From contig CALVTR010000002.1 in assembly GCA_944362965.1 (NCBI GenBank), positions 16,145 through 80,144 on the forward strand: 64,000 nt of DNA, written 5' to 3'. Every line of letters begins with the position of its first letter. The first letter of the stretch is position 1. A program made the translations under genes and the position numbers. Positions 2,426 through 57,984 of the stretch are shown one piece after another. A model generated the notes under the pieces. The model made no database searches and had not been told where the DNA came from. It worked only from the letters and a program-made list of their open reading frames with translations. Origin of the DNA: an uncultured Clostridia bacterium (GTDB lineage: Bacteria > Bacillota > Clostridia > Christensenellales > UBA1242).

Positions 2426-2501
2426 TGGAGCTAACGGCGGGGATCGAACCCGCGACCTGTCGATTACGAATCAACTGCTCTACCGACTGAGCCACGTTAG
2501 C
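2426..2501 (-). tRNA. tRNA-Thr (anticodon CGU), CCA encoded
   Basis: Manual cloverleaf: acceptor GCTAACG/CGTTAGC, D arm GCTC/GAGC, anticodon arm GTTGA/TCGAC with loop TTCGTAA, T arm GCGGG-TTCGATC-CCCGC, 76 nt. Confidence 0.9.
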
Positions 2502-9309: not shown

Positions 9310-10055
9310 TTTAGCACCTCGTAGATTGCGTTTGCTATTATTTCGCCTGCTATAGCCACGTTTTCTCGTATGTCCTTTGGTGCTAGGACTAAATCCTGCG
9401 GGCTGTTTTCATTAAGATCGCTTGCAAAAATCATAAATGGCACACCTATTGAAAGGCATGGCACGCCCATAGTGTCTTGGTCAATACGTCTTGAAAATCT
9501 GGCAACACCGCTGCCCGGCGTCATGCCGCTGGTGGTTATTTGAAAAGAGCATCCAAGTCTTTTGGGATTATTTGTTGTTAGGCTATCAATTATTATACAG
9601 TAGTCTATATACATACACTTAACAAGCATTTCAACCATATCAACCGTTTCAATCCCTGTTGAGAAAAAGATATTTGGACAGAATTTATAGATATTATTTG
9701 CCTTATTTAATACGTCTATTGTGATGTTATCAAAAACTTCCTTACCAAGTCTATCTGCCGCAATATCAGGGTTTCCAAGACATACGATAAGAACCTTATC
9801 TTTATGGCGAAGGCGAAGATTTTTCATAAATTTCTTTAGGTGCTCAGATAAATTTTCAGAAATAAAGGCATGACAATCTATGCCATAATCATAAAGTCTT
9901 GGGCAATTCAAAATAAAATATTCCCCTTCACGCATATCGCTTTTTTCATCTTCAACATTCAAAATGCCCGTGCTTATACCAAATTTCTCAAGCTTTTTGA
10001 CAGTATAGCCAACGCTTTCTAGGTCTTTTCCGCACTCATCAATCAAATCATACAT
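9306..10055 (-). CDS. gpr: germination protease GPR (peptidase A25), short form
   Basis: LIVCLGNPDIAADRLG and IIIDSL...FQITTSGMTPGSGV match the GPR GLGN..TPDALGP / IQISDTGI.PGSGV signatures. Divergent from rpsT, as in Bacillus. Confidence 0.7.
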   Translation of the reverse strand: MYDLIDECGKDLESVGYTVKKLEKFGISTGILNVEDEKSDMREGEYFILNCPRLYDYGIDCHAFISENLSEHLKKFMKNLRLRHKDKVLIVCLGNPDIAADRLGKEVFDNITIDVLNKANNIYKFCPNIFFSTGIETVDMVEMLVKCMYIDYCIIIDSLTTNNPKRLGCSFQITTSGMTPGSGVARFSRRIDQDTMGVPCLSIGVPFMIFASDLNENSPQDLVLAPKDIRENVAIAGEIIANAIYEVLK

Positions 10056-11883: not shown

Positions 11884-11974
11884 GGCGGCGGAAGGAACGC
11901 AAGTTTTTGCGTTCCCATAATAAAACCGCATGGTTTTATTATGAAATTTTGTTTTCAAAATTTGTTCCGCCGCC
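11884..11974. other. closed four-way-junction structured element, copy A
   Basis: 10-bp closing stem GGCGGCGGAA/TTCCGCCGCC around three abutting perfect hairpins (9, 12 and 8 bp; loops GTTT, GCAT, TTTT). Confidence 0.7.
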
Positions 11975-22849: not shown

Positions 22850-23725
22850 TTATGATCTGAGACTTATATCTATCGTGCAATTTTCAGTGATATTTATGAT
22901 AGCATAATAGTAAACATATGTAGTGTGTGCATCAGCACTATCTATAATTTCATTATCTATATATAAAATCACTCTTCCTGTATGAATATCTATCACAGAC
23001 TCAAAGCCATAAAAGGTATTTTCAGATGACCAATCAATTTCGTTAACATAAGATTCAAAGTTAGTAGGACCATTATTATATACTATAACACAAATCTTAG
23101 TATTTATTGGAACTGAAATCGTCGTATCTATAGGATTGCTAGAACTAGCACCTGTTTCTATTATTTCAGTATTTCCTTCACCAATTATATAAGCATCAAG
23201 CATATCACCTTGCAAGGTCACTTGAATGCCGGGATCTACATATTCTATAAAGCTTAGTGCTATGTCATCTAAAGTGACACTTGTTGTGCCTGTGTAGGTT
23301 ATAGTTAAGGTTATTGTGCCGGAGATTGTCGGCGTTGTGGCTACGTCTTCTACTGGGGTCGAATTGCCTGTGATTATGCCTGAAATTTCTAGACTTGCGT
23401 TTTGCAAAACTCTATCACAGGTTGCGGTGTAATCCGTTTCTGTGGTGTTTATCATATCTATTTCTATTGCGACAACACCTGAAGTGCTTTCTATGTTGCC
23501 TAAGTTTAAATCTAAGGTTGAATTTATATATCCTGGCATAAAGTTTTCTATTGTCTCTGATTGCAAGCGTATATCTTTAACATAGAGCGTGGTGTCTTCT
23601 ATATTAAAGTTTACTACCCCTTTTAGATTTATCGTTTGGCTTGCTGCATACACTCCAACTAGCAACATAGATAGCATCAACACAAAAGCTGATATTGCTG
23701 AAAATAATTTTACTTTTAGTGACAT
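22850..23725 (-). CDS. secreted/surface protein, unknown function
   Basis: 291 aa from MSLKVKLFSAISAFVLMLSMLLVGVYA (signal peptide; AAAGGAG SD). Thr/Ile-rich beta-like sequence. Shares a TLTIT...L.DI...I.EY..P segment with the 62557-64000 protein. Confidence 0.7.
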   Translation of the reverse strand: MSLKVKLFSAISAFVLMLSMLLVGVYAASQTINLKGVVNFNIEDTTLYVKDIRLQSETIENFMPGYINSTLDLNLGNIESTSGVVAIEIDMINTTETDYTATCDRVLQNASLEISGIITGNSTPVEDVATTPTISGTITLTITYTGTTSVTLDDIALSFIEYVDPGIQVTLQGDMLDAYIIGEGNTEIIETGASSSNPIDTTISVPINTKICVIVYNNGPTNFESYVNEIDWSSENTFYGFESVIDIHTGRVILYIDNEIIDSADAHTTYVYYYAIINITENCTIDISLRS

Positions 23726-23754
23726 ATTATAAACTCCTTTTTCTTGATTTTTAC

Positions 23755-23871
23755 GAGTGGCTTTGCCGCGAGAAGGCACAAAAGGCTGACGAGCCTTTTA
23801 GAAGGCAAAGACTTTTGCCTTCTTGTGCATTTTTCCCAAAATGCACATGCCTTCTCGCGGTAAAGCCGCTC
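23755..23871. other. closed four-way-junction structured element, copy B
   Basis: 24-bp closing stem (23755-23778 / 23848-23871, two G-T pairs) around hairpins 23780-23799, 23800-23823 and 23824-23847 (8, 10 and 10 bp; loops GACG, GACT, TCCC). An extra hairpin lies at 23874-23895. Confidence 0.7.
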
Positions 23872-23906: not shown

Positions 23907-23934
23907 AGTATACCCCCCCCGCAAACCACGTCAA
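23907..23934 (-). promoter_or_regulatory. sigma-A-type promoter (TTGACG-16-TATACT) whose spacer contains a G8/C8 homopolymer
   Basis: -35 at 23929-23934, -10 at 23907-23912, C8 tract at 23913-23920 abutting the -10. Confidence 0.55.
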
Positions 23935-29905: not shown

Positions 29906-32900
29906 ATGAGAAAGATTTTTAAAATTCTGTCTTATTCACTTTTATATTTGATTATTTCAGTGGCATCAGCTTATGGTGTCATAACTATTTCAATGAATAA
30001 TTACACGAACGAGCAAAATTCAACTAGCTCTGGCGGCTCCACTGAAGAGACTGTTATAGCAGAAGAAATTTCCACAATGATAAGCAATATCACAAACTCT
30101 AGTGCTTTGGGGCTTGAACTTGAGATTGAAATAGGTGCTGATGGGCAAAACTTTGAGATTGGCGTCGACGGCGAAATCGACCTTTCTAATGGTTTTGAGA
30201 ACTTGGCAGTAAATGCTGATATAAATATTGCATTTAGTGAGAATAGCTCTTTTGATATCGGCGTTATATATAAGGATGGCAACCTATATTTTGAACTTTT
30301 GAACAATAAATTCTTTATAGCAACCGACAATTTGATGACTTCACTTAGTCAAGTGTTTGGACTTCTTGGTGTTGAGATGCCTGAGCTTGGCATTGATTTG
30401 GACTCGCTTAGCCTTGACAGCATTCTTGGTATGCTTTCTAACTTTGAAAAAGTGAATGGTGAAGACGGCTTGCTTGTGCTTCAAGTGGCTATTCCTGTTG
30501 TAAATCAAATTGACCTTATCTGCACAACCGACTATACACTAACCGGGCTTAGCCTTCCTAAGACTTCTATTGAAGGTATTGAACTTGCTGTAAACGGCAA
30601 TGTAAGTTACCCTGAGGAAGTTGTAATTGATAGTGTTGACAGTAGTGATTATATTGACCTTACTAATGTTATTGACCTTGCGTGCGGGCTTATTGACTTT
30701 ATCTCTCAAGACCAAATTGGGCTTGAATATAATGTAAGTTATAATGATTTGACGATTGCTGGCCGCATCGACGTTGATTTAAATAATATCTCAGCTAAAA
30801 TTACTCTTGCTCTTGGTGATTTAAATGCAAATATAATATATCAAAATGGCATGCTCTACCTTGAAGCTTACAATATCTATGCTAAGTTTGATATTGGGCA
30901 GATTGGAGATGTTTTGACATTGGCTCAAAAATACTTTGACGTTGAGTTGCCTAATGAGCTGATTGCTAGCATTGTGTCTGCTATTGAAAGTGGTGATTTT
31001 AGCGGAATACTTGACAGTGTTGAGCTGCCTGAAATTGACCTTTCTTCTATCGACCTTTCAATACTTGAAAGCATTGTGAAGAATGGTGACACAACTTCTA
31101 TTACAATCACTGATATTGGCAAAATTGACGTGACTTTAAGTGAAGGCAAAATAGCGTCTATTGGATTTGATGGTTTTGGCGCTATGGTTGATGTTAATGT
31201 TTCTAACTATAGCGGATTTACTCTAACTGCCCCTGCTGAAAGCTATATTGATATTGGATTGCTGCTTCCAACGCTTGATAACGTGCTTGCAATTCTTCAA
31301 AACAACACATTCTCTGGACAGATAAATATTGTCTATGGGGAATATCAATTTGACATTGATTACACTATTCACACGCGTGAAGAAAACAGCTTTATCACTC
31401 TTTCAACTAGTGTGTTTGGGCAAGATATTAAGGTAAATATATTAAATAATAAAGTTTACATTGAAATAAGTGAGACTAAGCTTATTTGTGACCTTAATAA
31501 CCTTGAAAATGTTATTGGTAAAGTGCTTGATGCATTTGGAATTGAATTTGATAGTTCTTCTATAACTAGTGGACTTAAGGACTTAATCAATAGCGAAATC
31601 AATCCACTTTTAATTACAGGTCTTGTTGAAAATGAAAATGGTGTAACTATTGTTTTACTTGATAAACTGGCAATAACTTTAACAAATGGCTCTAGCGAGC
31701 TTAAGATTGATGTAAACTATCAAGACTTGAAGGTTAGCGGCAATGTTATAGGAAGCATACAAGAACTTACAGCCCCAACCATTGATGAAAGTGAGTACTC
31801 ACCTATTGAAGATATCGTTGACAGTGTGATAAATGTATATAACTACGTTTTAGCTAAGACTTTCTATCTAAGTTTTGATGCAAGTTATCAAGATATTGCT
31901 ATAGTTGGTGCGTTAAACTATGATGAAAGCGGGCTTTCTCTTACTGCAACACTGAGCTATCAAAACTTAACTGCAAATGTTATGCTTTCTGAAAACAAAG
32001 TTTACATCACTGCAGAAAACATCAAGCTTGTGTTTGACTTAAATGACATTGATTATGTTAAATCCTTCTTAAATGACTACTTCGGTGTTGATGTTGAAGG
32101 CATGCTTGATGAAATTTTAGGCAAAGTTGGAATTAGTCTTGATAGTAGCAATGATTCTAGCAACTTAATTTCGGACATCTTAAGCGGAATTGACCTTGAG
32201 ACTATCATAAGCGGTGCAAGCTTTAATATCTCATCTGACACAATCACTCTTTCTGCTCTTGATGGACTTAATGTCAATATTGCTCTTGAAGAAAATATGA
32301 TTACAAGTATTTCTCTTAGCTACAATATTTCAAGTGAAGAACAAACTGCGATTTCAGCCAATGTTACAATTGAAAATTCAAAAAATGAATTTTCTATTGT
32401 AAATGAAAGTGAATATATTGATGTTATTGAACTTCTTGATATTGTAAAAGCTCTCATTGACTTTGCAAGTCAAGACCAAATGGCTGTAAATTATCAAGTT
32501 AACTACAATGATGTAGATGTAAATGGAAAAATTGACTTAAATGTTGCAGAGAAATCCGCAAAGATATCAATCAATATAAATGATTTAATGGCAAACATTA
32601 TCTATGAAAGCGGTTCGCTTTATCTTGAAGCTTACAACATCTATGCTAGGTTTGATATTGGGCAGATTGGAGACGTTTTGACCTTGGTTGAAAAATATTT
32701 TGATGTTACACTGCCTAATGAGTTGATTGCTAGCGTTGTATCTGCTATTGAAAGTGGCGATTTTAGTGGAATACTTGATAGCATTGAACTGCCTTCTATT
32801 GACCTTGGCTCTATTGACCTTTCAATACTTGAGAGCATTGTGAAGAATGGTGACACAACTTCTATTACAATCACTGATATTGGCAAGATTGACGTGACTT

Positions 32901-35900
32901 TAAATGAAGGCAAAATAGCGTCTATAGGTTTTGATGGTTTTGGCGCTGTGGTTGATGTTAATGTTTCTAACTATAGCGGATTTACTCTAACTGCCCCTGC
33001 TGAAAGCTATATTGATATTGGATTGCTGCTTCCAACGCTTGATAACGTGCTTGCAATTCTTCAAAACAACACATTCTCTGGACAGATAAATATTGTCTAT
33101 GGGGAATATCAATTTGACATTGATTACACTATTCACACGCGTGAAGAAAACAGCTTTATCACTCTTTCAACTAGTGTGTTTGGGCAAGATATTAAGGTAA
33201 ATATATTAAATAATAAAGTTTACATTGAAATAAGTGAGACTAAGCTTATTTGTGACCTTAATAACCTTGAAAATGTTATTGGTAAAGTGCTTGATGCATT
33301 TGGAATTGAATTTGATAGTTCTTCTATAACTAGTGGACTTAAGGACTTAATCAATAGCGAAATCAACCCACTTTTAATCACAAGCTTTGTTGAAAATGAA
33401 AATGGTTTGACTATAGTTTTACTTGATAAACTTACAATAACTCTCACAAATGGCTCTAGCGAGCTTAAGGTTGATGCAAGTTATCAAGACTTAAAGCTGA
33501 GTGCAAACGTTATTGGAAGTGAGCAAGAGCTTTCTGCTCCAGCCATTGTTGAAAGTGAATACACACCTATTGAAGATATTGTTGACAGTGTGATAAATGT
33601 TTATAACTACGTTTTAGCCAAGACTTTCTATCTAAGTTTTGATGCAAGCTATCAAGATATTGCTATAGTTGGTGCGTTAAATTATGATGAAAGTGGGCTC
33701 TCTCTTACTGCAACACTGAGCTATCAAAGCCTATCTGCAAATGTTATGCTTTATGAAAACAAAGTATATATCACAGCAGAAAATATCAAACTTGTGTTTG
33801 ACTTAAATGACCTTGAATATGTTAAGACATTCTTAAATGACTATTTCGGTGTTGATATTGAAGGCAAGCTTGATGAAATATTAGGCAAAGTTGGAATTAG
33901 TCTTGATAGTAGTGATAGTGGCAATATGATATCTGACATTTTAAGCGGACTTGACCTTGAGGCTATCATAAGTGGTGCAAGTTTCAATATCTCATCTGAT
34001 GCAATCACCCTTTCTGCTCTTGATGGACTTAACGTGAATATTTCCCTTACAGAAAACATGATTGACACAATTAGTGTTGAGTATATGCTTGTAAATGGAG
34101 AAAATAGCTCGCCTATCAGTGCAAATATTAAAGTTGAACAAATCGCAAGTATCTTTAACCCTGTTGGAGATTATACTGATATTACGACTATATTAGACTA
34201 CGTTGGACTGCTTTTAGATTATGTTAGCACAAAACAGATGCAATTTGGCATTGCGGCAAGTTATGGTGATATAAATGTTGAAGGTAAAATTCAACTTGAT
34301 TTAACTTCTCAACTTCTTATGAGTGCTAGTCTAAACTCAAATGACATCGACAACTTTGATATTTCTGCAAATATTGAAGACGGAATGCTCTACTTTGATT
34401 ATAGTGGGCTCTGCTTAAAGATTGATAACAACAACTTTAAAGAGCTTCTCGTTATTGTGCTTGAAGTTCTTGGAATTGATGCAAATAGCATACCTTTCCT
34501 TGAAGATATCGACCTTGACCTTGATTTCTCTCAAATTGAAACTGACATTGCTTCGCTTGAAATAAGCATTGACGACATAGTAAATATCTTGAAAATGGTG
34601 AAGAAAATTGACGTGACAGGAGACAGTCTTGATATTATTCTTGACGGAAAGGCAATCTATAACAATGAAAACGCAAGTGACCTTACAATCTCTCTTATTA
34701 AAGAAAATGGTGCTATTAAGTCTTTGACGCTTTCTAATATATATCTTGATGAAACGCTTGAAACAAAGATTGACGCTACCCTTACTTTTGAAACGCTAAG
34801 TGATTTTGCTTATGTTGATCAAACCAAAAATTATATTGATATTTCAGGCTCTAACGAGCTTATCAAGGCTCTTATCAATATGACAACTGATACTGACTTC
34901 CATGTTCAAGGTTCATTTGATATCTTGGGTTCGCTTGCTGGTATTGATATCTCTTGGAACGTTCCATTTGATATCAAAATCAACGTTGTGGGCAAAGGTG
35001 ACATTGAACTTTATGGCGTGGTTGGAGAAATCCCGACTATGATTGGCGTTAATAACGACGTGCCTTATGAGTTTGGTGATACTGAAAGTGGCTCTGACAG
35101 ATACCTATATATCTACTATAAGGATGGCTATATCTATCTTTATAGAAGTGAAAAAGTTGATATCATGTTTGGCGCTAGCTATAGAACTTATGAAAAGAGC
35201 ACAAAAATTTCAATAGACACCTTCCTTGCTGACCCTATGTATTATATTCAATACTGCTTTGGTTTTACTGACACTATTATGAATGCAATTATTGAGTCTA
35301 TGAACAATCCACGCACGGAGCCGATGGACTTTGGCAACATTATTAAGTCTTTCACTGTTCAAGATAATAAGAACTTCACGATTGACCTTAATATGCATGA
35401 GCTTACAAACAACCCTGACCTTGACAGTCTTATTGTTTCACTTGGAATTGAACAGACTGCTGAGGGAAAGAACTATGTTGGCAAACTGCAACTTAGTCTT
35501 TACATGCCACTTGCTGATATATTCACACTTACCCTATCAACGAGCGATGCTCAAATTGTTGACTATGGAACAGAAGTTGATATGAGCCCACTTTATGACT
35601 TTATTAATAACTATCAATACGCAAGCGAGACAGAGTGGGAAGCAAGCAATGGCAACTGGCAGATGTCTGGGGAAATACTCTATCAAATAAATTTTGAAAC
35701 AAATTGCGACGAGACGCTTGAGTCACAAAGTTATCATTATAAAGATAGTTTAGCTCTGCCAACACTTTCTGACTATGTTGTTGACGATGGGCTTACACAT
35801 AAGAGTTATCACTTTGCGGGTTGGTTTGAAGATGAAACTTTCTTGACACAATTTACAAGTGATACAATGCCTAGAAAAGATATGACCTTATATGCTAAGT

Positions 35901-36892
35901 GGGAAGTCGTAACACAAAACTACTATACAATAACCTTCGTTACTAATAGTGATGATAAAATTGATAGCATAACTAAACTTGAAGGCGAAAGTATAGATAT
36001 ACCTAGCCTTACAACTAAAGAAATTACTGAAAGTAACTTCACTTCTTACTATGAATTTGGTGGCTGGTTTACAACTGAAGATTTTGAAGAAGGGTCGCAA
36101 TTCAACTTAACCGCAATGCCTTCTCAAAATACCACCCTTTATGCTAAGTGGAACTTAATTAGAACTGAGTATACACGCTCAGTAAACGTCTATGATGGCG
36201 ATGAACTTTTGGCTACGCTGCGTGTTAAAGTTGGAGATACAATAGACTTCTCGTCTATAGAAAAGGTCAATGAGACAACTAAGTTCTATCTTGACAAGTC
36301 TTTCACAGCAGAGATGACCGACTTTACAATGCCTAACAATGACCTTGATATCTATATCAGAAATATGTATACACTGACCTTTACAAGTGATTATGGAAAC
36401 ACTGAAACTGTTATAGTGCATCTCTATCAAGGCGAGCAAATAGAAGTTCCTGTTCAAAGTAGTTATGTTTTTGATGACGGGCAAACCGCTAGAATAACAT
36501 ATACTTTCAATGGCTATAATAGCGATATAGTTATGCCAAATCATGATACAACCTATAGTGCAGATTGGACCGTTGATGAAAAACATTATTACACAGTTTC
36601 ATTTGACCTGAGATGGTATCTTGTTATGGGTTGCACAGCTGGTAGCAAGATGAAAAATTCGCCTTCTCCTATTGATTCATTCAAGGTTTTAGAGGGAACA
36701 ACTATTGACTTAACGCAGTATGCTCCAACCTGCACAGCATACTTGACTGCAATTCCAATAGACGCAAAGAACTTTAAAGCAACGTCTTGGGGAACAAGTG
36801 CATGGGGTGACTACACTTCTGGTGGAAGCGGTTTCACAACAATTACTATCACAGGTGACACAACCTTATATGCTTGCTGGGAAAGAGTTTAA
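29906..36892 (+). CDS. 2,328-aa N-terminally anchored surface protein: about nine ~190-aa modules plus five C-terminal Listeria-Bacteroides (Flg_new-type) repeats
   Basis: AAGGAG SD. Signal-anchor ILSYSLLYLIISVASAYGVITI. C-terminal repeats carry F.GWF...MP...LYAKW. Uninterrupted ORF. Confidence 0.85.
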   Translation: MRKIFKILSYSLLYLIISVASAYGVITISMNNYTNEQNSTSSGGSTEETVIAEEISTMISNITNSSALGLELEIEIGADGQNFEIGVDGEIDLSNGFENLAVNADINIAFSENSSFDIGVIYKDGNLYFELLNNKFFIATDNLMTSLSQVFGLLGVEMPELGIDLDSLSLDSILGMLSNFEKVNGEDGLLVLQVAIPVVNQIDLICTTDYTLTGLSLPKTSIEGIELAVNGNVSYPEEVVIDSVDSSDYIDLTNVIDLACGLIDFISQDQIGLEYNVSYNDLTIAGRIDVDLNNISAKITLALGDLNANIIYQNGMLYLEAYNIYAKFDIGQIGDVLTLAQKYFDVELPNELIASIVSAIESGDFSGILDSVELPEIDLSSIDLSILESIVKNGDTTSITITDIGKIDVTLSEGKIASIGFDGFGAMVDVNVSNYSGFTLTAPAESYIDIGLLLPTLDNVLAILQNNTFSGQINIVYGEYQFDIDYTIHTREENSFITLSTSVFGQDIKVNILNNKVYIEISETKLICDLNNLENVIGKVLDAFGIEFDSSSITSGLKDLINSEINPLLITGLVENENGVTIVLLDKLAITLTNGSSELKIDVNYQDLKVSGNVIGSIQELTAPTIDESEYSPIEDIVDSVINVYNYVLAKTFYLSFDASYQDIAIVGALNYDESGLSLTATLSYQNLTANVMLSENKVYITAENIKLVFDLNDIDYVKSFLNDYFGVDVEGMLDEILGKVGISLDSSNDSSNLISDILSGIDLETIISGASFNISSDTITLSALDGLNVNIALEENMITSISLSYNISSEEQTAISANVTIENSKNEFSIVNESEYIDVIELLDIVKALIDFASQDQMAVNYQVNYNDVDVNGKIDLNVAEKSAKISININDLMANIIYESGSLYLEAYNIYARFDIGQIGDVLTLVEKYFDVTLPNELIASVVSAIESGDFSGILDSIELPSIDLGSIDLSILESIVKNGDTTSITITDIGKIDVTLNEGKIASIGFDGFGAVVDVNVSNYSGFTLTAPAESYIDIGLLLPTLDNVLAILQNNTFSGQINIVYGEYQFDIDYTIHTREENSFITLSTSVFGQDIKVNILNNKVYIEISETKLICDLNNLENVIGKVLDAFGIEFDSSSITSGLKDLINSEINPLLITSFVENENGLTIVLLDKLTITLTNGSSELKVDASYQDLKLSANVIGSEQELSAPAIVESEYTPIEDIVDSVINVYNYVLAKTFYLSFDASYQDIAIVGALNYDESGLSLTATLSYQSLSANVMLYENKVYITAENIKLVFDLNDLEYVKTFLNDYFGVDIEGKLDEILGKVGISLDSSDSGNMISDILSGLDLEAIISGASFNISSDAITLSALDGLNVNISLTENMIDTISVEYMLVNGENSSPISANIKVEQIASIFNPVGDYTDITTILDYVGLLLDYVSTKQMQFGIAASYGDINVEGKIQLDLTSQLLMSASLNSNDIDNFDISANIEDGMLYFDYSGLCLKIDNNNFKELLVIVLEVLGIDANSIPFLEDIDLDLDFSQIETDIASLEISIDDIVNILKMVKKIDVTGDSLDIILDGKAIYNNENASDLTISLIKENGAIKSLTLSNIYLDETLETKIDATLTFETLSDFAYVDQTKNYIDISGSNELIKALINMTTDTDFHVQGSFDILGSLAGIDISWNVPFDIKINVVGKGDIELYGVVGEIPTMIGVNNDVPYEFGDTESGSDRYLYIYYKDGYIYLYRSEKVDIMFGASYRTYEKSTKISIDTFLADPMYYIQYCFGFTDTIMNAIIESMNNPRTEPMDFGNIIKSFTVQDNKNFTIDLNMHELTNNPDLDSLIVSLGIEQTAEGKNYVGKLQLSLYMPLADIFTLTLSTSDAQIVDYGTEVDMSPLYDFINNYQYASETEWEASNGNWQMSGEILYQINFETNCDETLESQSYHYKDSLALPTLSDYVVDDGLTHKSYHFAGWFEDETFLTQFTSDTMPRKDMTLYAKWEVVTQNYYTITFVTNSDDKIDSITKLEGESIDIPSLTTKEITESNFTSYYEFGGWFTTEDFEEGSQFNLTAMPSQNTTLYAKWNLIRTEYTRSVNVYDGDELLATLRVKVGDTIDFSSIEKVNETTKFYLDKSFTAEMTDFTMPNNDLDIYIRNMYTLTFTSDYGNTETVIVHLYQGEQIEVPVQSSYVFDDGQTARITYTFNGYNSDIVMPNHDTTYSADWTVDEKHYYTVSFDLRWYLVMGCTAGSKMKNSPSPIDSFKVLEGTTIDLTQYAPTCTAYLTAIPIDAKNFKATSWGTSAWGDYTSGGSGFTTITITGDTTLYACWERV
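30650..34171 (+). repeat. two tandem in-frame repeats of 1,764 and 1,758 bp inside the giant gene
   Basis: Units 30650-32413 and 32414-34171 (aa 249-836 and 837-1422). 31185-31602 is identical to 32949-33366 (418 bp) by direct comparison. Confidence 0.9.
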
Positions 36893-37171: not shown

Positions 37172-37241
37172 TGTTTTCTCCTTTTATATTTATTTTTTAA
37201 TAAATCCGCATGAAAAAACTTGAGCTTTAAATAAAACTTTG

Positions 37242-37424
37242 GGCGGAGCAGAAAAAGGCACAAAAGCGTGAGAGTAGCACTCACAAAAGAAAGCAAACTT
37301 AAGAATAAAAGCAAACTTATCAGCCCTTAAATGGTGAACATGCAAGGTTACAGGTCTACGCATGCTTTCTTTTAAAAAATTAAATGAAATTTAATTTTTG
37401 CTTTTGTGCCGATTGCTGTTTGCC
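37242..37424. other. closed four-way-junction structured element, copy E (expanded)
   Basis: Closing stem GGCACAAAAGC (37257-37267) / GCTTTTGTGCC (37400-37410). Hairpins 37268-37284, 37285-37373 (11-bp base with a 67-nt insert) and 37375-37399. An outer second stem pairs 37242-37251 with 37416-37424. Confidence 0.65.
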
Positions 37425-37562
37425 TATTCCATACCGATTGTTGTTTTCTTTATAAAGATAGTTTCAGCTTAATACAGTTTCAAATAATAAAAAATATACA
37501 AATTAAAGATGAAAGATTTTATAAAAACACGATATTTTTTTAATGTGAGCTAAAAAAACTTT

Positions 37563-38354
37563 TTATACATGCTTTTTTATGTTTCGCTTTATATAGCCCA
37601 TTAGTCCACGATACTTATATGTGCAATCAAAAATTTTCTTTGAGCCGTTGTGAATATTCTCACTTAGCAGTGTGAAAGCCCTTGCACTTTCTATTGATTG
37701 CACTCGTCCGCCAAGTGAGTTTGATGCCCCTATTGCGTCATCTTCTGGAATGACGCCAAGAAGTGGCAGGTTTAACGCCCTGACTATATTTTCAACGGTC
37801 ATCATTTCGCCATTTAAAAGTAGGTCTCCCCGCACTCTATTTATAACTAAGCCTTTATATTCAATATCATACTCATCTAAAAGCCCTATAACCTTATCGG
37901 CATCTCTGATTGATGAAAGGTGCGGAGTTACCACAATTATAGCTTCATTCGCTGGAAACACCGCCCTATGAAAGCCCGCTTCAACACCTGCTGGGCAATC
38001 TATCAAGATATAGTCAAAACTTGTGTCAAGCTGGTCAATCACATTTTTGATATGCTCGCCCATTATATTTGTTTTGTTATAGGCATGAGCTGAAGGCAAT
38101 ATATAAAGTGATGAGATATTCTTGTCTTGAACAAGAGCCTGGCGTGGTCTGCATCTGCCCATAATCACATCTGTGATATCAAAAACAACTTGGTCTTCAA
38201 CTCCCATGACAACGTCAAGATTATTAAGACCGATATCAACATCAAAAAGCACCACTCTGAAGCCAAGTTTTGCTAGATACATGCCTAGATTTGCACATAT
38301 TGTTGTTTTACCTACACCGCCTTTGCCGCTTGTCAAAACAATCTTTCTTGCCAT
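37563..38354 (-). CDS. minD: septum site-determining ATPase MinD
   Basis: MARKIVLTSGKGGVGKTT deviant Walker A. C-terminal amphipathic helix (LMGYIKRNIKK). AAGGAG SD. The track start 39 nt earlier is rejected. Confidence 0.85.
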   Translation of the reverse strand: MARKIVLTSGKGGVGKTTICANLGMYLAKLGFRVVLFDVDIGLNNLDVVMGVEDQVVFDITDVIMGRCRPRQALVQDKNISSLYILPSAHAYNKTNIMGEHIKNVIDQLDTSFDYILIDCPAGVEAGFHRAVFPANEAIIVVTPHLSSIRDADKVIGLLDEYDIEYKGLVINRVRGDLLLNGEMMTVENIVRALNLPLLGVIPEDDAIGASNSLGGRVQSIESARAFTLLSENIHNGSKKIFDCTYKYRGLMGYIKRNIKKHV

Positions 38355-46795: not shown

Positions 46796-46865
46796 TTATT
46801 ATAAAATAGTATTTTATTTTTAGATTTTACTTAAAAATTTTGAGTTTAGGTTTGATAGTTTAAGT

Positions 46866-47390
46866 TTAGTCTTCGTCGTCATCGTCGTAGTCATAATCGT
46901 CGTCATCATCGTCATCGCTGTCGTCAATATCGTCACTATCTTCGTCGTCATCGTCATCTTCGTCATCGTCTTCGTCGAAGTCTTCATCATCAAAGCTTAT
47001 ATCGTCTTCGTCGTCAGCAAAGTCAATATCAGGCGTGATATCGTCATCATCAAGCAAGCTTGATTTTGTGATGTCATTGACAGATGCCATGTCACCTGTT
47101 TCATCATCCATAGTCATAACATCGTCATTATCGTCGCGGACAATATAATCTTCCCAATCAGAGTTGAGTTCGCCGTCTTCATTTTGATGCTCCTTAAGGC
47201 AGCTTGCACACATGATTTCGTCTGGTTGAATATAGTTTGTTTTGCAAATTGGGCAAAGCTCTAGGTCTATATCGTCAACATAATCCTTCTTTGCTTCCAT
47301 TTCTGCTTTGCAAACAGAACAATATTTATCCTTTTTTTGTATATAGTTTAGTTCACATCTAGGACATCTAATATAAACTGGTTTTTTCAT
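46866..47390 (-). CDS. double zinc-ribbon protein with about 100-aa poly-Asp/Glu tail
   Basis: CPRCELNYIQ...CSVC and CPICKTNYIQ...CASC. The C-terminal third is almost entirely D/E. AAGGAGAG SD. Confidence 0.75.
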   Translation of the reverse strand: MKKPVYIRCPRCELNYIQKKDKYCSVCKAEMEAKKDYVDDIDLELCPICKTNYIQPDEIMCASCLKEHQNEDGELNSDWEDYIVRDDNDDVMTMDDETGDMASVNDITKSSLLDDDDITPDIDFADDEDDISFDDEDFDEDDDEDDDDDEDSDDIDDSDDDDDDDYDYDDDDED

Positions 47391-51831: not shown

Positions 51832-52755
51832 TTATAAGATATACTTTGCGTCTTCAATTTTATCAACTTCCTCAAGACGTTTTGGTGAAAGAATTGTGTC
51901 GCTATCAACATAGAAACGCATCCCTTGACTTGAGAAGAACATCACCATTTCAAAGATATGAATTAGTGGTGAGATGAGCGGAAGTATTATGATTATTGAG
52001 TAAAGCCCTAGAACAACTGAAAGGACTATTGCAAGAAGGAAGATTATAAATGCTGTTGAAAATACCCTTGCACCCCTTCTTAGCACGGCACGCATGCCTA
52101 TCATAAACGATTTGAATACATTTTGATTATATACCACTTTAGCTGGTGCCCAGCCTGCATTGAAGGTCTCTTTGAACGCCATCAAAAGTGCTGGAACGAT
52201 GACAAAGGCAAATGGCATGATATAATCAAAGATTGCGTTATCTACGCGTGTAAGTCCCCACATACTTAGCACGATAAGTGCGTTGAATGGCATGCAATAA
52301 AAGACCTTTATTATTGAATAGGTCAAAGAATTTTTGAGTGTCTTTAGGTATGTGCCTGAGAAGCTTTGTTTTTGACATGATGACATATAGCCATACATCA
52401 TTTCACAAGTTACGTATTTGCCGATATTGAGCAAAAGTGGAAGCAAGATAAAAGATACTAGGCAAAAATAAATGCCTATACCTGCATTTGTGAAAATCTC
52501 TCTAAAGAATATGAGAACAAAGTCTATTGCGGCGGTCAGTCCGTTTGCTAGGCTGGAGCCGTAGAGTGTGCCGGTGTCAAATGTTCCGCTTAAGTTTGAC
52601 TCATTGTAAGCTATTATGCCTGCATCAAGGTAGCTGTTATAAAAAACACATAGAAGGGCTATGCATAAACCGATTGATAAAATATGGTATACAAGAAGCT
52701 TCCATACCTTATCAAAGTTTGCACATAATAATCTGACTGAATTTTTAAACATCAT
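51832..52755 (-). CDS. polytopic membrane protein, unknown function
   Basis: 307 aa with about 6 hydrophobic segments. Confidence 0.6.
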   Translation of the reverse strand: MMFKNSVRLLCANFDKVWKLLVYHILSIGLCIALLCVFYNSYLDAGIIAYNESNLSGTFDTGTLYGSSLANGLTAAIDFVLIFFREIFTNAGIGIYFCLVSFILLPLLLNIGKYVTCEMMYGYMSSCQKQSFSGTYLKTLKNSLTYSIIKVFYCMPFNALIVLSMWGLTRVDNAIFDYIMPFAFVIVPALLMAFKETFNAGWAPAKVVYNQNVFKSFMIGMRAVLRRGARVFSTAFIIFLLAIVLSVVLGLYSIIIILPLISPLIHIFEMVMFFSSQGMRFYVDSDTILSPKRLEEVDKIEDAKYIL

Positions 52756-52807: not shown

Positions 52808-52899
52808 GCTGCTCGGAAATGCCACTTTGAAAAAGTGGCAAAAGTTGCCTGAAGGGCAACTTTTTAAAATTTTAAATTAAAATTTTATTTCCGAGCAGC
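52808..52899. other. closed four-way-junction structured element, copy C
   Basis: 13-bp closing stem GCTGCTCGGAAAT/ATTTCCGAGCAGC around hairpins 52821-52839, 52840-52864 and 52866-52886 (8, 10 and 8-9 bp). Confidence 0.7.
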
Positions 52900-52983: not shown

Positions 52984-53012
52984 ATTATACAATAAAAATT
53001 TATATATTGCAA
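52984..53012 (-). promoter_or_regulatory. sigma-A-type promoter (TTGCAA-17-TATAAT)
   Basis: -35 at 53007-53012, -10 at 52984-52989. Gives a leader of about 220 nt that contains copy C. Confidence 0.55.
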
Positions 53013-57710: not shown

Positions 57711-57856
57711 ATTTTTAAATTTAATTATTTTTTAAATTTTTATTTTATTTTTACAATTTATTTTTATCTTTATTTATTTATATCCTTTATTTTTTATTTA
57801 GTTATATTTAATAATATTTTTTTATTTATATTTTTTAATAAAACCGCATGAAAAAA

Positions 57857-57941
57857 GCTCGGAAACGCATGCCATAGGCTTGCAAAAAGAAAGTTTCTAC
57901 TTTCTTTTTAAAAAATTGATTTATCAATTTTTGTTTCCGAG
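57857..57941. other. closed four-way-junction structured element, copy D
   Basis: 10-bp closing stem GCTCGGAAAC/GTTTCCGAGC around hairpins 57867-57883, 57884-57909 and 57910-57931 (7 bp with one T-T, 11 bp, 9 bp), with zero junction nucleotides. Confidence 0.7.
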
Positions 57942-57984
57942 CAATTTATAAAAAACAATATTTTTTAGCGACTATTTAAATTTA

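Follow-up and report, generated by a model that had tools for sequence, protein, structure and literature searches.

Four-way-junction repeats in an uncultured Clostridia genome and a copy lying between minD and a minE-like gene

Small non-coding, modular repeats are familiar from Gram-positive bacteria, among them BOX, RUP and SPRITE of Streptococcus pneumoniae and the Firmicute repeats that resemble MITEs (miniature transposable elements with inverted repeats), and the BOX, RUP and SPRITE families are defined by conserved modules or by terminal inverted repeats with target-site duplications. BOX-type repeats fold into stable multi-helix RNA, sit in untranslated regions (UTRs) and can alter the expression of neighboring genes. 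In model bacteria, REP, BOX and ERIC repeats shape mRNA stability, operon stoichiometry and genome rearrangement, while of small structured repeats in uncultured gut Clostridia, to our knowledge, almost nothing is known. REP/BIME repeats are known as 3′-exonuclease barriers that stabilize the upstream mRNA, as determinants of relative expression within operons and as weak terminators (reviewed in PMC3184786; PMC3733652). Double-hairpin and hairpin-forming elements of fungal and sponge mitochondria are reported to be short, intergenic and patchily distributed among related genomes (PMC2800124). Here we describe a family of four-way-junction repeats in a 64-kb window (the whole stretch of DNA that was analyzed, from contig CALVTR010000002.1 of an uncultured Clostridia bacterium), and in particular its copy E, which lies between minD and a minE-like gene. 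The window is low-GC DNA (35.5% G+C) that carries mostly ordinary housekeeping genes, such as clpC, hpf, greA, the RNase J gene, groES/EL and rpsA.

Five four-way junctions (A to E; Table 1) are present in the window, all of them intergenic. The unit consists of a closing stem of 10–15 bp, often extended outward, that caps exactly three abutting hairpins, and measures 84–118 nt, or about 85–95 nt when compact. A sequence-blind descriptor, demanding a Watson-Crick closing stem of at least 8 bp round a number k of hairpins that abut one another or are separated by no more than 2 nt, was run over the window and 80 related loci (1.35 Mb in all), the latter being minD-centered loci from species-level relatives (L001–L080; MinD identity 72–98%), nearly all of which are labelled as uncultured Clostridia, Firmicutes or Christensenella-like. 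With k = 3 it returned 12 elements, against none in shuffled sequence, and with k = 2, 4 or 5 it returned none in the same 1.35 Mb, hence a specific architecture is found rather than a random cluster of hairpins. When 12 paralogous copies were aligned with MAFFT the helices failed to align, the sequences being too different, and therefore orthologue sets and the descriptor scan were taken instead; orthologous copies from sister species were fetched via Hpf and GreA homologues. A covariance model built only from six D and E orthologue sequences (R1) recovers A, C and B, two copies in one relative (L012a and L012c) and new copies in L067, L069, L076 and L231; it scores copy E at 80.7 bits on the minus strand and matches copy B weakly (26.6 bits) and on the plus strand only. 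The density varies from five copies in the 64-kb window and three in 10 kb of L012 to none in most 20-kb loci, and two copies in L231 occupy sites without a copy in the window. As these genome comparisons show, the family has spread through a clade of uncultured low-GC gut Clostridia, with copies at intergenic sites that differ from species to species.

The copies are mosaic, in that the closing stem is common to C and D, two hairpins and a 28-nt flank block are common to D and E, the core of this block is part of a hairpin inside A, and the flank TTTTTCTTCGYTYRAG is common to A and E. The 20-nt core of the block never occurred twice in 100 shuffles, and its motif CATGCGG(A/T)TTTATTA is found on the minus strand at 37198–37212 (E), 57836–57850 (D) and 11918–11932 (A); in copy A this 15-mer makes up the loop of the middle hairpin together with its 3′ arm. 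The stretch TTCATGCGG beside copy D is conserved in three species. Near-identical pairs of copies are lacking in the window, D and E being the most similar, so there is no sign of recent transposition. In L012, a degenerate second copy with broken hairpins (9552–9650) follows an intact one (9391–9483) at a distance of 70 nt; both share the 3′ flank ATCA.A.AGCAAGAAAACCT.ATCAGTCTCAC, and additional outer stems are nested around the intact copy, for a total of about 40 bp. Metagenome contigs were also scanned for the closing stem of C and D (GCTCGGAAA N55–85 TTTCCGAGC), and the 80 of 80 listed matches were chance palindromes from unrelated environments, none of which folded as a family member.

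Copy E is an expanded four-way junction related to copy D, as had been proposed in a preliminary description made from the letters of the window. The closing stem, the three hairpins and the 67-nt insert given there were all recovered by RNAfold on both strands, and the closing stem and hairpin 1 do differ from those of copy D with their pairing kept. Read along the minus strand, copy E runs from the closing stem through the AT-rich, the middle and the GC-richer hairpin back to the closing stem. The fold has a predicted energy of −58.2 kcal/mol with the same four-way junction on either strand, and in a comparison with 200 dinucleotide shuffles for each strand it reached z = −4.3 (plus) and −5.0 (minus), none of the 200 shuffles being as stable; for the compact copy D, z was −8.0 and −7.2 on the two strands. 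The 12-nt direct repeat that had been noticed, AAAGCAAACTTA, is present at 37290–37301 and 37308–37319, its first copy overlapping the stem base of hairpin 2. Likewise present are the T-run on the minus strand, where TTTTTCTGC lies directly 3′ of the closing stem, and the match of the 28-nt block beside copy D. Copy E has orthologues in L001 (8427–8581) and L003 (10836–10922). The closing stem is identical in L001 and loses one junction-proximal pair in L003, and hairpin 1 has a 7-bp version in L001. The middle hairpin is compact in L003, where it lacks an insert (AAAAGAAAG TCTTG CTTTCTTTT), and in L001 it carries a 68-nt insert that is different from the 67-nt insert of the window; no copy of either insert was found in the rest of the window or in about 1.6 Mb from relatives.

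Table 1. Features of the minD–minE spacer, of copy E and of the other four-way junctions in the window (positions in the 64-kb window).
Feature	Position	Strand	Remarks
minD, 263 aa (amino acids) from ATG, MinD/ParA-type ATPase	37563–38354	−	Pfam CbiA, ParA, AAA_31 and MipZ matches
minE-like gene, 76 aa	36941–37171	−	position after minD and sub-threshold Pfam MinE
minD–minE spacer, 391 nt	37172–37562	−	expanded relative to the gap of 3–30 nt in most relatives
Copy E, four-way junction, 154 nt	37257–37410	−	folds on both strands
Closing stem P1, arm GGCACAAAAGC	37257–37267		pairs with 37400–37410; 11 bp
Closing stem P1, arm GCTTTTGTGCC	37400–37410		RNAfold
Hairpin 1, GTGAG / CTCAC, 7-nt loop, GC-richer arm	37268–37284		RNAfold
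Hairpin 2, 11-bp base AAAAGAAAGCA / TGCTTTCTTTT (37285–37295 / 37363–37373)	37285–37373		insert 37296–37362, 67 nt
Hairpin 3, AAAAATTAAAT GAA ATTTAATTTTT, AT-rich arm	37375–37399		stem identical in L001 and L003; loop differs in L001
T5 run after the closing stem	37252–37256	−	gene-sense strand
28-nt block TTTTTTCATGCGGATTTATTAAAAAATA (sense strand)	37191–37218	−	matches 57829–57856 beside copy D, one mismatch
76-nt segment absent in some strains	37232–37307		L081 and L084 versus eight other contigs with identical MinD
Copy A	11884–11974	−	clpC on one side, hpf/raiA on the other; TTTTT comes next on the sense strand
Copy B	23766–23860		5′ UTR of gene 22850–23727; extended outer stem 23759–23867
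Copy C	52808–52899	−	downstream of greA; 5′ UTR of the 307-aa gene 51832–52755
Copy D	57857–57942	−	between convergent genes: SHOCT-domain gene and tadA-like deaminase gene

The spacer that holds copy E had been called unusually long, and the relatives bear this out, as about 60 of the 80 have a gap of only 3–30 nt between minD and the minE-like gene. The minD gene call recurs identically in ten other assemblies. The gene downstream lies directly 3′ of minD in all 80 relatives, and its product matches Pfam MinE with E = 0.0076 in the window and with E ≤ 0.1 in 14 of 14 orthologues tested (best 7.6e-6), all of these matches being below the curated cut-off, while a profile search of the family against solved structures did not find MinE. 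The label minE-like is thus reasonable but weak, resting on the conserved position after minD and the sub-threshold matches. Among the 80 relatives, the junction occupies the minD–minE spacer only in the window species, L001 and L003, which are the three closest genomes by minD DNA identity (91% for L001 and 83% for L003 relative to the window, as compared to 81% and 78% for the element-free L002 and L004). Since the gap is tight in most relatives and the junction is confined to the window and two sister species, copy E was inserted, and the comparison shows that it entered an ancestrally tight minD–minE junction in the common ancestor of the three sister species. It is well supported by these alignments that copy E is a decaying member of a shape-defined repeat family, inserted in a recent ancestor. 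Enlarged spacers in other relatives carry unrelated AT-rich sequence or tandem repeats, the latter at L003 10634–10835, L010 10789–11024 and L016 10789–11282 with units of about 26, 34 and 66 nt, respectively, each occurring about three times, and different kinds of insertion seem to accumulate in the minD–minE spacer, as in a hotspot. The 28-nt block was considered as a promoter of the minE-like gene and rejected, as no acceptable −35/−10 pair was seen on inspection and the same block beside copy D faces the end of a convergent gene.

Copy E has been lost in part in some strains. Ten contigs encoding an identical MinD were listed, and at least two independent assemblies (L081 and L084) lack a 76-nt segment. 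The deletion takes away the T-run, one closing-stem arm, the whole of hairpin 1 and the 3′ arm of hairpin 2, but leaves minE intact. The same two contigs also encode a shorter, 1741-aa form of the neighboring surface protein, hence the deletion marks a real lineage and an assembly error is unlikely. Because strains with an identical MinD have lost the junction, it is well supported that copy E is dispensable in some strains. In the window, the surface-type protein has 2328 aa and Flg_new repeats (29906–36892), with internal direct repeats about 1.76 kb apart.

The reading that we favor, and to which we would give an even chance, is that copy E belongs, in partly degraded form, to a dispersed family of structured repeats, akin to REP and BOX, that forms a stable structure in the transcript. 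After its entry into the minD–minE junction, copy E gained the 67-nt insert in one hairpin loop. In the transcript of the adjacent gene, the element would form a very stable structure and, by analogy to REP elements and BOX-type repeats, a barrier to exonucleases, and where a U-run follows, as at A, D and E in this genome, it would act as a leaky terminator. In its place between the two min genes, the element could, as a by-product, favor minD over minE, an incidental consequence for the relative expression of the two genes being possible. The positions of the copies are consistent with such a role, in which the RNA structure may by analogy serve as a barrier or terminate weakly. Three copies, A, D and E, lie 3′ of a gene and are followed by T5–6 on the gene-sense strand, and the copies in L066 and L002 start 1 and 5 nt, respectively, after a stop codon. 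At the greA site, L231 has a plain hairpin with a T-run where the window clade has copy C. Against a simple terminator, copies B and C sit in 5′ UTRs downstream of near-consensus promoters, have no T-run, and must be read through because of this location. Along the direction of transcription the AT-rich hairpin comes first in 7 of 8 or 9 independent, non-convergent insertions, orientation relative to transcription and relative to replication being confounded in the present sample.

Like REP/BIME, the elements are dispersed, intergenic, multi-copy and palindromic, often lie 3′ of genes or between cistrons, are found in either orientation and differ among species. In contrast to REP, which is a single imperfect hairpin of 20–40 nt with a GTAG or CGTC head and is linked to RAYT transposases, they combine a closing stem with three hairpins, have nearly perfect stems and end in GGCGG, CCGCG, GCTGC, GCTCG or GGCAC, and no RAYT or other transposase was found among the window open reading frames (ORFs) scanned with Pfam (about 29). 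They differ from BOX, RUP and SPRITE in that the shape is kept while the copies have little sequence in common, and in that target-site duplications were not seen. As in MITEs, there are terminal inverted repeats, formed by the closing stem and its outer extensions (10–25 bp), but near-identical copies are lacking in the window and none of its scanned ORFs belongs to an insertion sequence; the ends of A to E show no evident direct repeat, the occupied and empty sites being too diverged for exact boundaries to be placed. The mitochondrial hairpin elements are likewise recognized by a multi-hairpin shape and not by sequence, yet they are organellar, consist of two or single hairpins, have no closing stem and have no ancestry in common with the present family. 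With intrinsic terminators, copies A, D and E share a GC-containing stem followed by T5–6 on the sense strand at a gene end, whereas their “loop” consists of three complete hairpins, most copies have no T-run, and the T-run is not conserved in orthologues. A search of the literature on four-way-junction repeats, branched terminators and cloverleaf repeats found no such element described. By these analogies, the element looks most like REP/BIME and the pneumococcal BOX and RUP in how it would work, and appears to be set apart as a new structural form of small structured intergenic repeat.

Base pairing is maintained in orthologous copies while loops and flanks diverge. Between copy E and its orthologue in L003, 3 of 72 stem bases have changed, as compared to about 41% of minD third codon positions, and two of the three changes form a compensatory pair (GTGAG/CTCAC to GTAAG/CTTAC, in hairpin 1), while the loops and flanks of the E orthologues are largely unalignable. 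Of the 39 pairs of copy A, 4 differ from the orthologue in L222 by compensatory double substitutions, which are transversions in two cases, in addition to one wobble and one lost apical pair, so that A and E orthologues together have five compensatory double changes. In the D orthologues (L228 and L230), compensatory changes occur along with matched one-base-pair insertions in both arms of two hairpins, and the four-way junction is also the consensus fold that RNAalifold derives from six orthologues of D and E, with both-side changes in 14 of 35 pairs. These alignments show that the pairing is maintained, and it is well supported that it is kept either by selection or by a palindrome-preserving process; DNA-level palindrome correction could give the same compensatory pattern.

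Several observations weigh against the reading that we favor. The matched indels in both arms are easier to obtain by DNA-level palindrome correction than by selection at the RNA level. The stems are almost purely Watson-Crick, the exceptions in 13 confident copies (about 500 pairs, an estimate) including one G·T and three A·C, and such a near-absence of wobble pairs is unusual for a selected RNA fold; however, ordinary terminators of this genome are also perfect palindromes, hence the scarcity of wobble pairs is not decisive. Both strands fold equally well. The T-run is absent in B, C and most copies in relatives. The orthologues of D (CCTATT and ACTTTT in L228 and L230) have lost it, and in those of E it is degraded to TTTGTCT in L001 and TTTATCA in L003. 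Copy C is inverted in one species and B matches R1 on the antisense strand, so that orientation is not strictly required, and loss of copy E is possible, as the allele with the 76-nt deletion demonstrates. Most of these points are shared by an alternative that we hold to be possible but doubtful, namely that the elements are a selfish or neutral family of DNA palindromes which descend from one ancestral repeat, have no RNA function and affect their neighbors by accident, their arms being kept complementary by intrastrand template switching, through which quasi-palindromes are corrected, and by inversion between inverted arms. In addition to the nearly exclusive Watson-Crick pairing without an excess of G·T over A·C, the equal folding of both strands and the matched indels, this alternative would account for the inverted inner part of copy C in L228, for the mosaic make-up of the copies (the closing stem of C and D, the hairpins and block of D and E, the block inside a hairpin of A), for copy numbers that vary between species, and for the insert in E, the deletion allele and the degenerate tandem copy in L012 as products of decay. 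However, orthologues have been retained over a synonymous divergence of 0.2–0.4 with stems that change about ten times more slowly than third codon positions, which is unexpected for junk in a compact genome; near-identical copies and signs of recent transposition are missing, as are a transposase among the ORFs scanned and an evident target-site duplication, and every hit of the descriptor scan has exactly three hairpins.

In the preliminary description, copy E was read as a site of partial termination or of processing by which the MinD:MinE ratio is set. As a dedicated device selected for this purpose, the element would fit its place between minD and minE, with T5 following an 11-bp stem on the sense strand; no convincing promoter was seen by inspection of the sequence between the junction and minE, hence minE probably depends on read-through. 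Nine of the 12 copies in the 80 minD-centered loci lie in mreB–minD–minE spacers, which make up 31% of intergenic bases (binomial p = 0.002, a value that ignores orthology and that refers to spacers partly enlarged by the elements themselves); these copies, between or just after the three genes, are those of L001, L002, L003, L005, L012 (two), L019, L067 and L076. The unrelated repeats that expand the spacer in L003, L010 and L016 also speak in favor of such a device. Nevertheless, we consider it improbable. The same type of element follows clpC, greA and the SHOCT-domain gene and is found in 5′ UTRs, the T-run is degraded in both E orthologues and absent in both D orthologues, and strains with the 76-nt deletion keep an identical MinD and an intact minE. 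The comparison of relatives' spacers, which the preliminary description had itself named, together with an unchanged expression ratio, as a way to overturn its proposal, found adjacent genes without the element in about 60 of the 80. We conclude that the element is not a dedicated min regulator, and that ratio setting would be at most a local consequence.

It had further been claimed that an outer stem of copy E (37242–37251 / 37416–37424) needs G-U pairs that exist on the plus strand only. The outer stem with its G-U pairs is indeed seen in the plus-strand fold of E, but the restriction to this strand fails across the family, as the outer stem of copy A takes its G-U pairs on the opposite strand, and therefore the outer stem is not evidence for a particular strand; on inspection, it has no evident counterpart in the L001 and L003 orthologues. 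The strand matters for the alternative of an independent small RNA gene, tRNA-like or other, that would be expressed from the plus strand, antisense to the flanking genes. The outer stems of both E and B would pair with G-U on the plus strand only, one mismatch in L003 wobbles on this strand only, GAA and GAAA loops occur on it in several hairpins, and by inspection a −10-like hexamer precedes, by 1–2 nt on this strand, the conserved CCGCATG beside D and E. We regard such a gene as very improbable, since, besides the outer stem of copy A, no terminator follows the element on the plus strand, B and C lack the CCGCATG block, which in A is part of a hairpin, and loops are not conserved between copies. 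ARAGORN found no tRNA or tmRNA at A to E, and a whole-window search with Rfam 15, which included its models of tRNA, of the raiA motif and of Clostridiales motifs, gave no hit with E ≤ 10 overlapping any of the five copies; the only hit in the window that reached a gathering score was a tRNA-Thr (2429–2501). When the minD–minE spacer was searched alone, Rfam gave only weak matches (E ≥ 0.33, 11–16 bits against gathering scores of 50–80). A tRNA-like element or a known RNA family is ruled out by ARAGORN and Rfam, and the raiA RNA motif, considered for copy A in view of its position upstream of hpf/raiA, was rejected in the absence of an Rfam hit.

A bolder proposal, which we think rather unlikely, takes the elements as a bacterial class not described before and defined by shape, in which a perfect closing stem and three hairpins would be kept by selection over long times while the sequence is free. 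A structure-specific host factor would read them, either as RNA in UTRs or as extruded DNA, and they would have been recruited recurrently to mreB–minD–minE spacers, where they would uncouple the expression of genes for cell shape and division.

The family is unusual in that a precise four-way-junction shape is conserved rather than a sequence, and it offers a clean natural test of RNA-level versus DNA-level maintenance of palindromes. The 76-nt deletion allele is a natural knock-out for the question of MinD:MinE balance, and R1 is suited to the annotation of such elements in metagenome-assembled genomes. As to the minD–minE spacer itself, the value of the finding is mainly corrective, as it points to a repeat insertion and not to a min-specific regulatory invention.

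The other copies differ in how they are distributed among strains and species. Copy A is identical in 8 strains, with no presence/absence variation seen within the species, and its site is empty in L225 and L226, which have a 74-nt spacer there. Copy C is preceded by a near-consensus promoter (52984–53012, TTGCAA-17-TGnTATAAT) that is conserved in four species. It has the same orientation in L229 and L230, and its hairpin order is inverted in L228 (7620–7712), where R1 matches the opposite strand and the three hairpins are reversed relative to the flanking genes; in L231 and L232 the site is empty and occupied by a plain hairpin and a T-run. An active DNA inversion switch at copy C was considered and rejected, as nine strains with an identical GreA all have the same orientation, and in the absence of polymorphism among them the inversion in L228 is a fixed difference between species. 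The region of copy D exists as two very different alleles in contigs with an identical GreA and copy C, namely the window type (57711–57984, 274 nt) and the L230 type (329–342 nt; L234 997–1326, L237 975–1317), which suggests recombination between closely related lineages, as far as can be told from the alleles. Upstream of copy B lies a promoter-like TTGACG-16 nt-TATACT on the minus strand (23907–23934) with a run of eight G in the spacer, and the gene downstream encodes 309 aa. Homopolymer runs in promoter spacers are a classic arrangement for phase variation, which would here concern that gene.

Two further repeats are found elsewhere in the window. In the ORF at 46866–47390 (minus strand), short in-frame repeats of 9–21 nt (46858–47048), rich in GTC and ATC on the plus strand, probably encode an acidic tract rich in Asp and Glu. 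An exact 38-nt direct repeat occurs at 2227–2264 and 2419–2456, with its copies 192 nt apart; the second copy is the 3′ part of tRNA-Thr(CGU) (2426–2501, minus strand) and the other has no tRNA around it. The repeat resembles the scar of an attachment site or what is left of a second tRNA.

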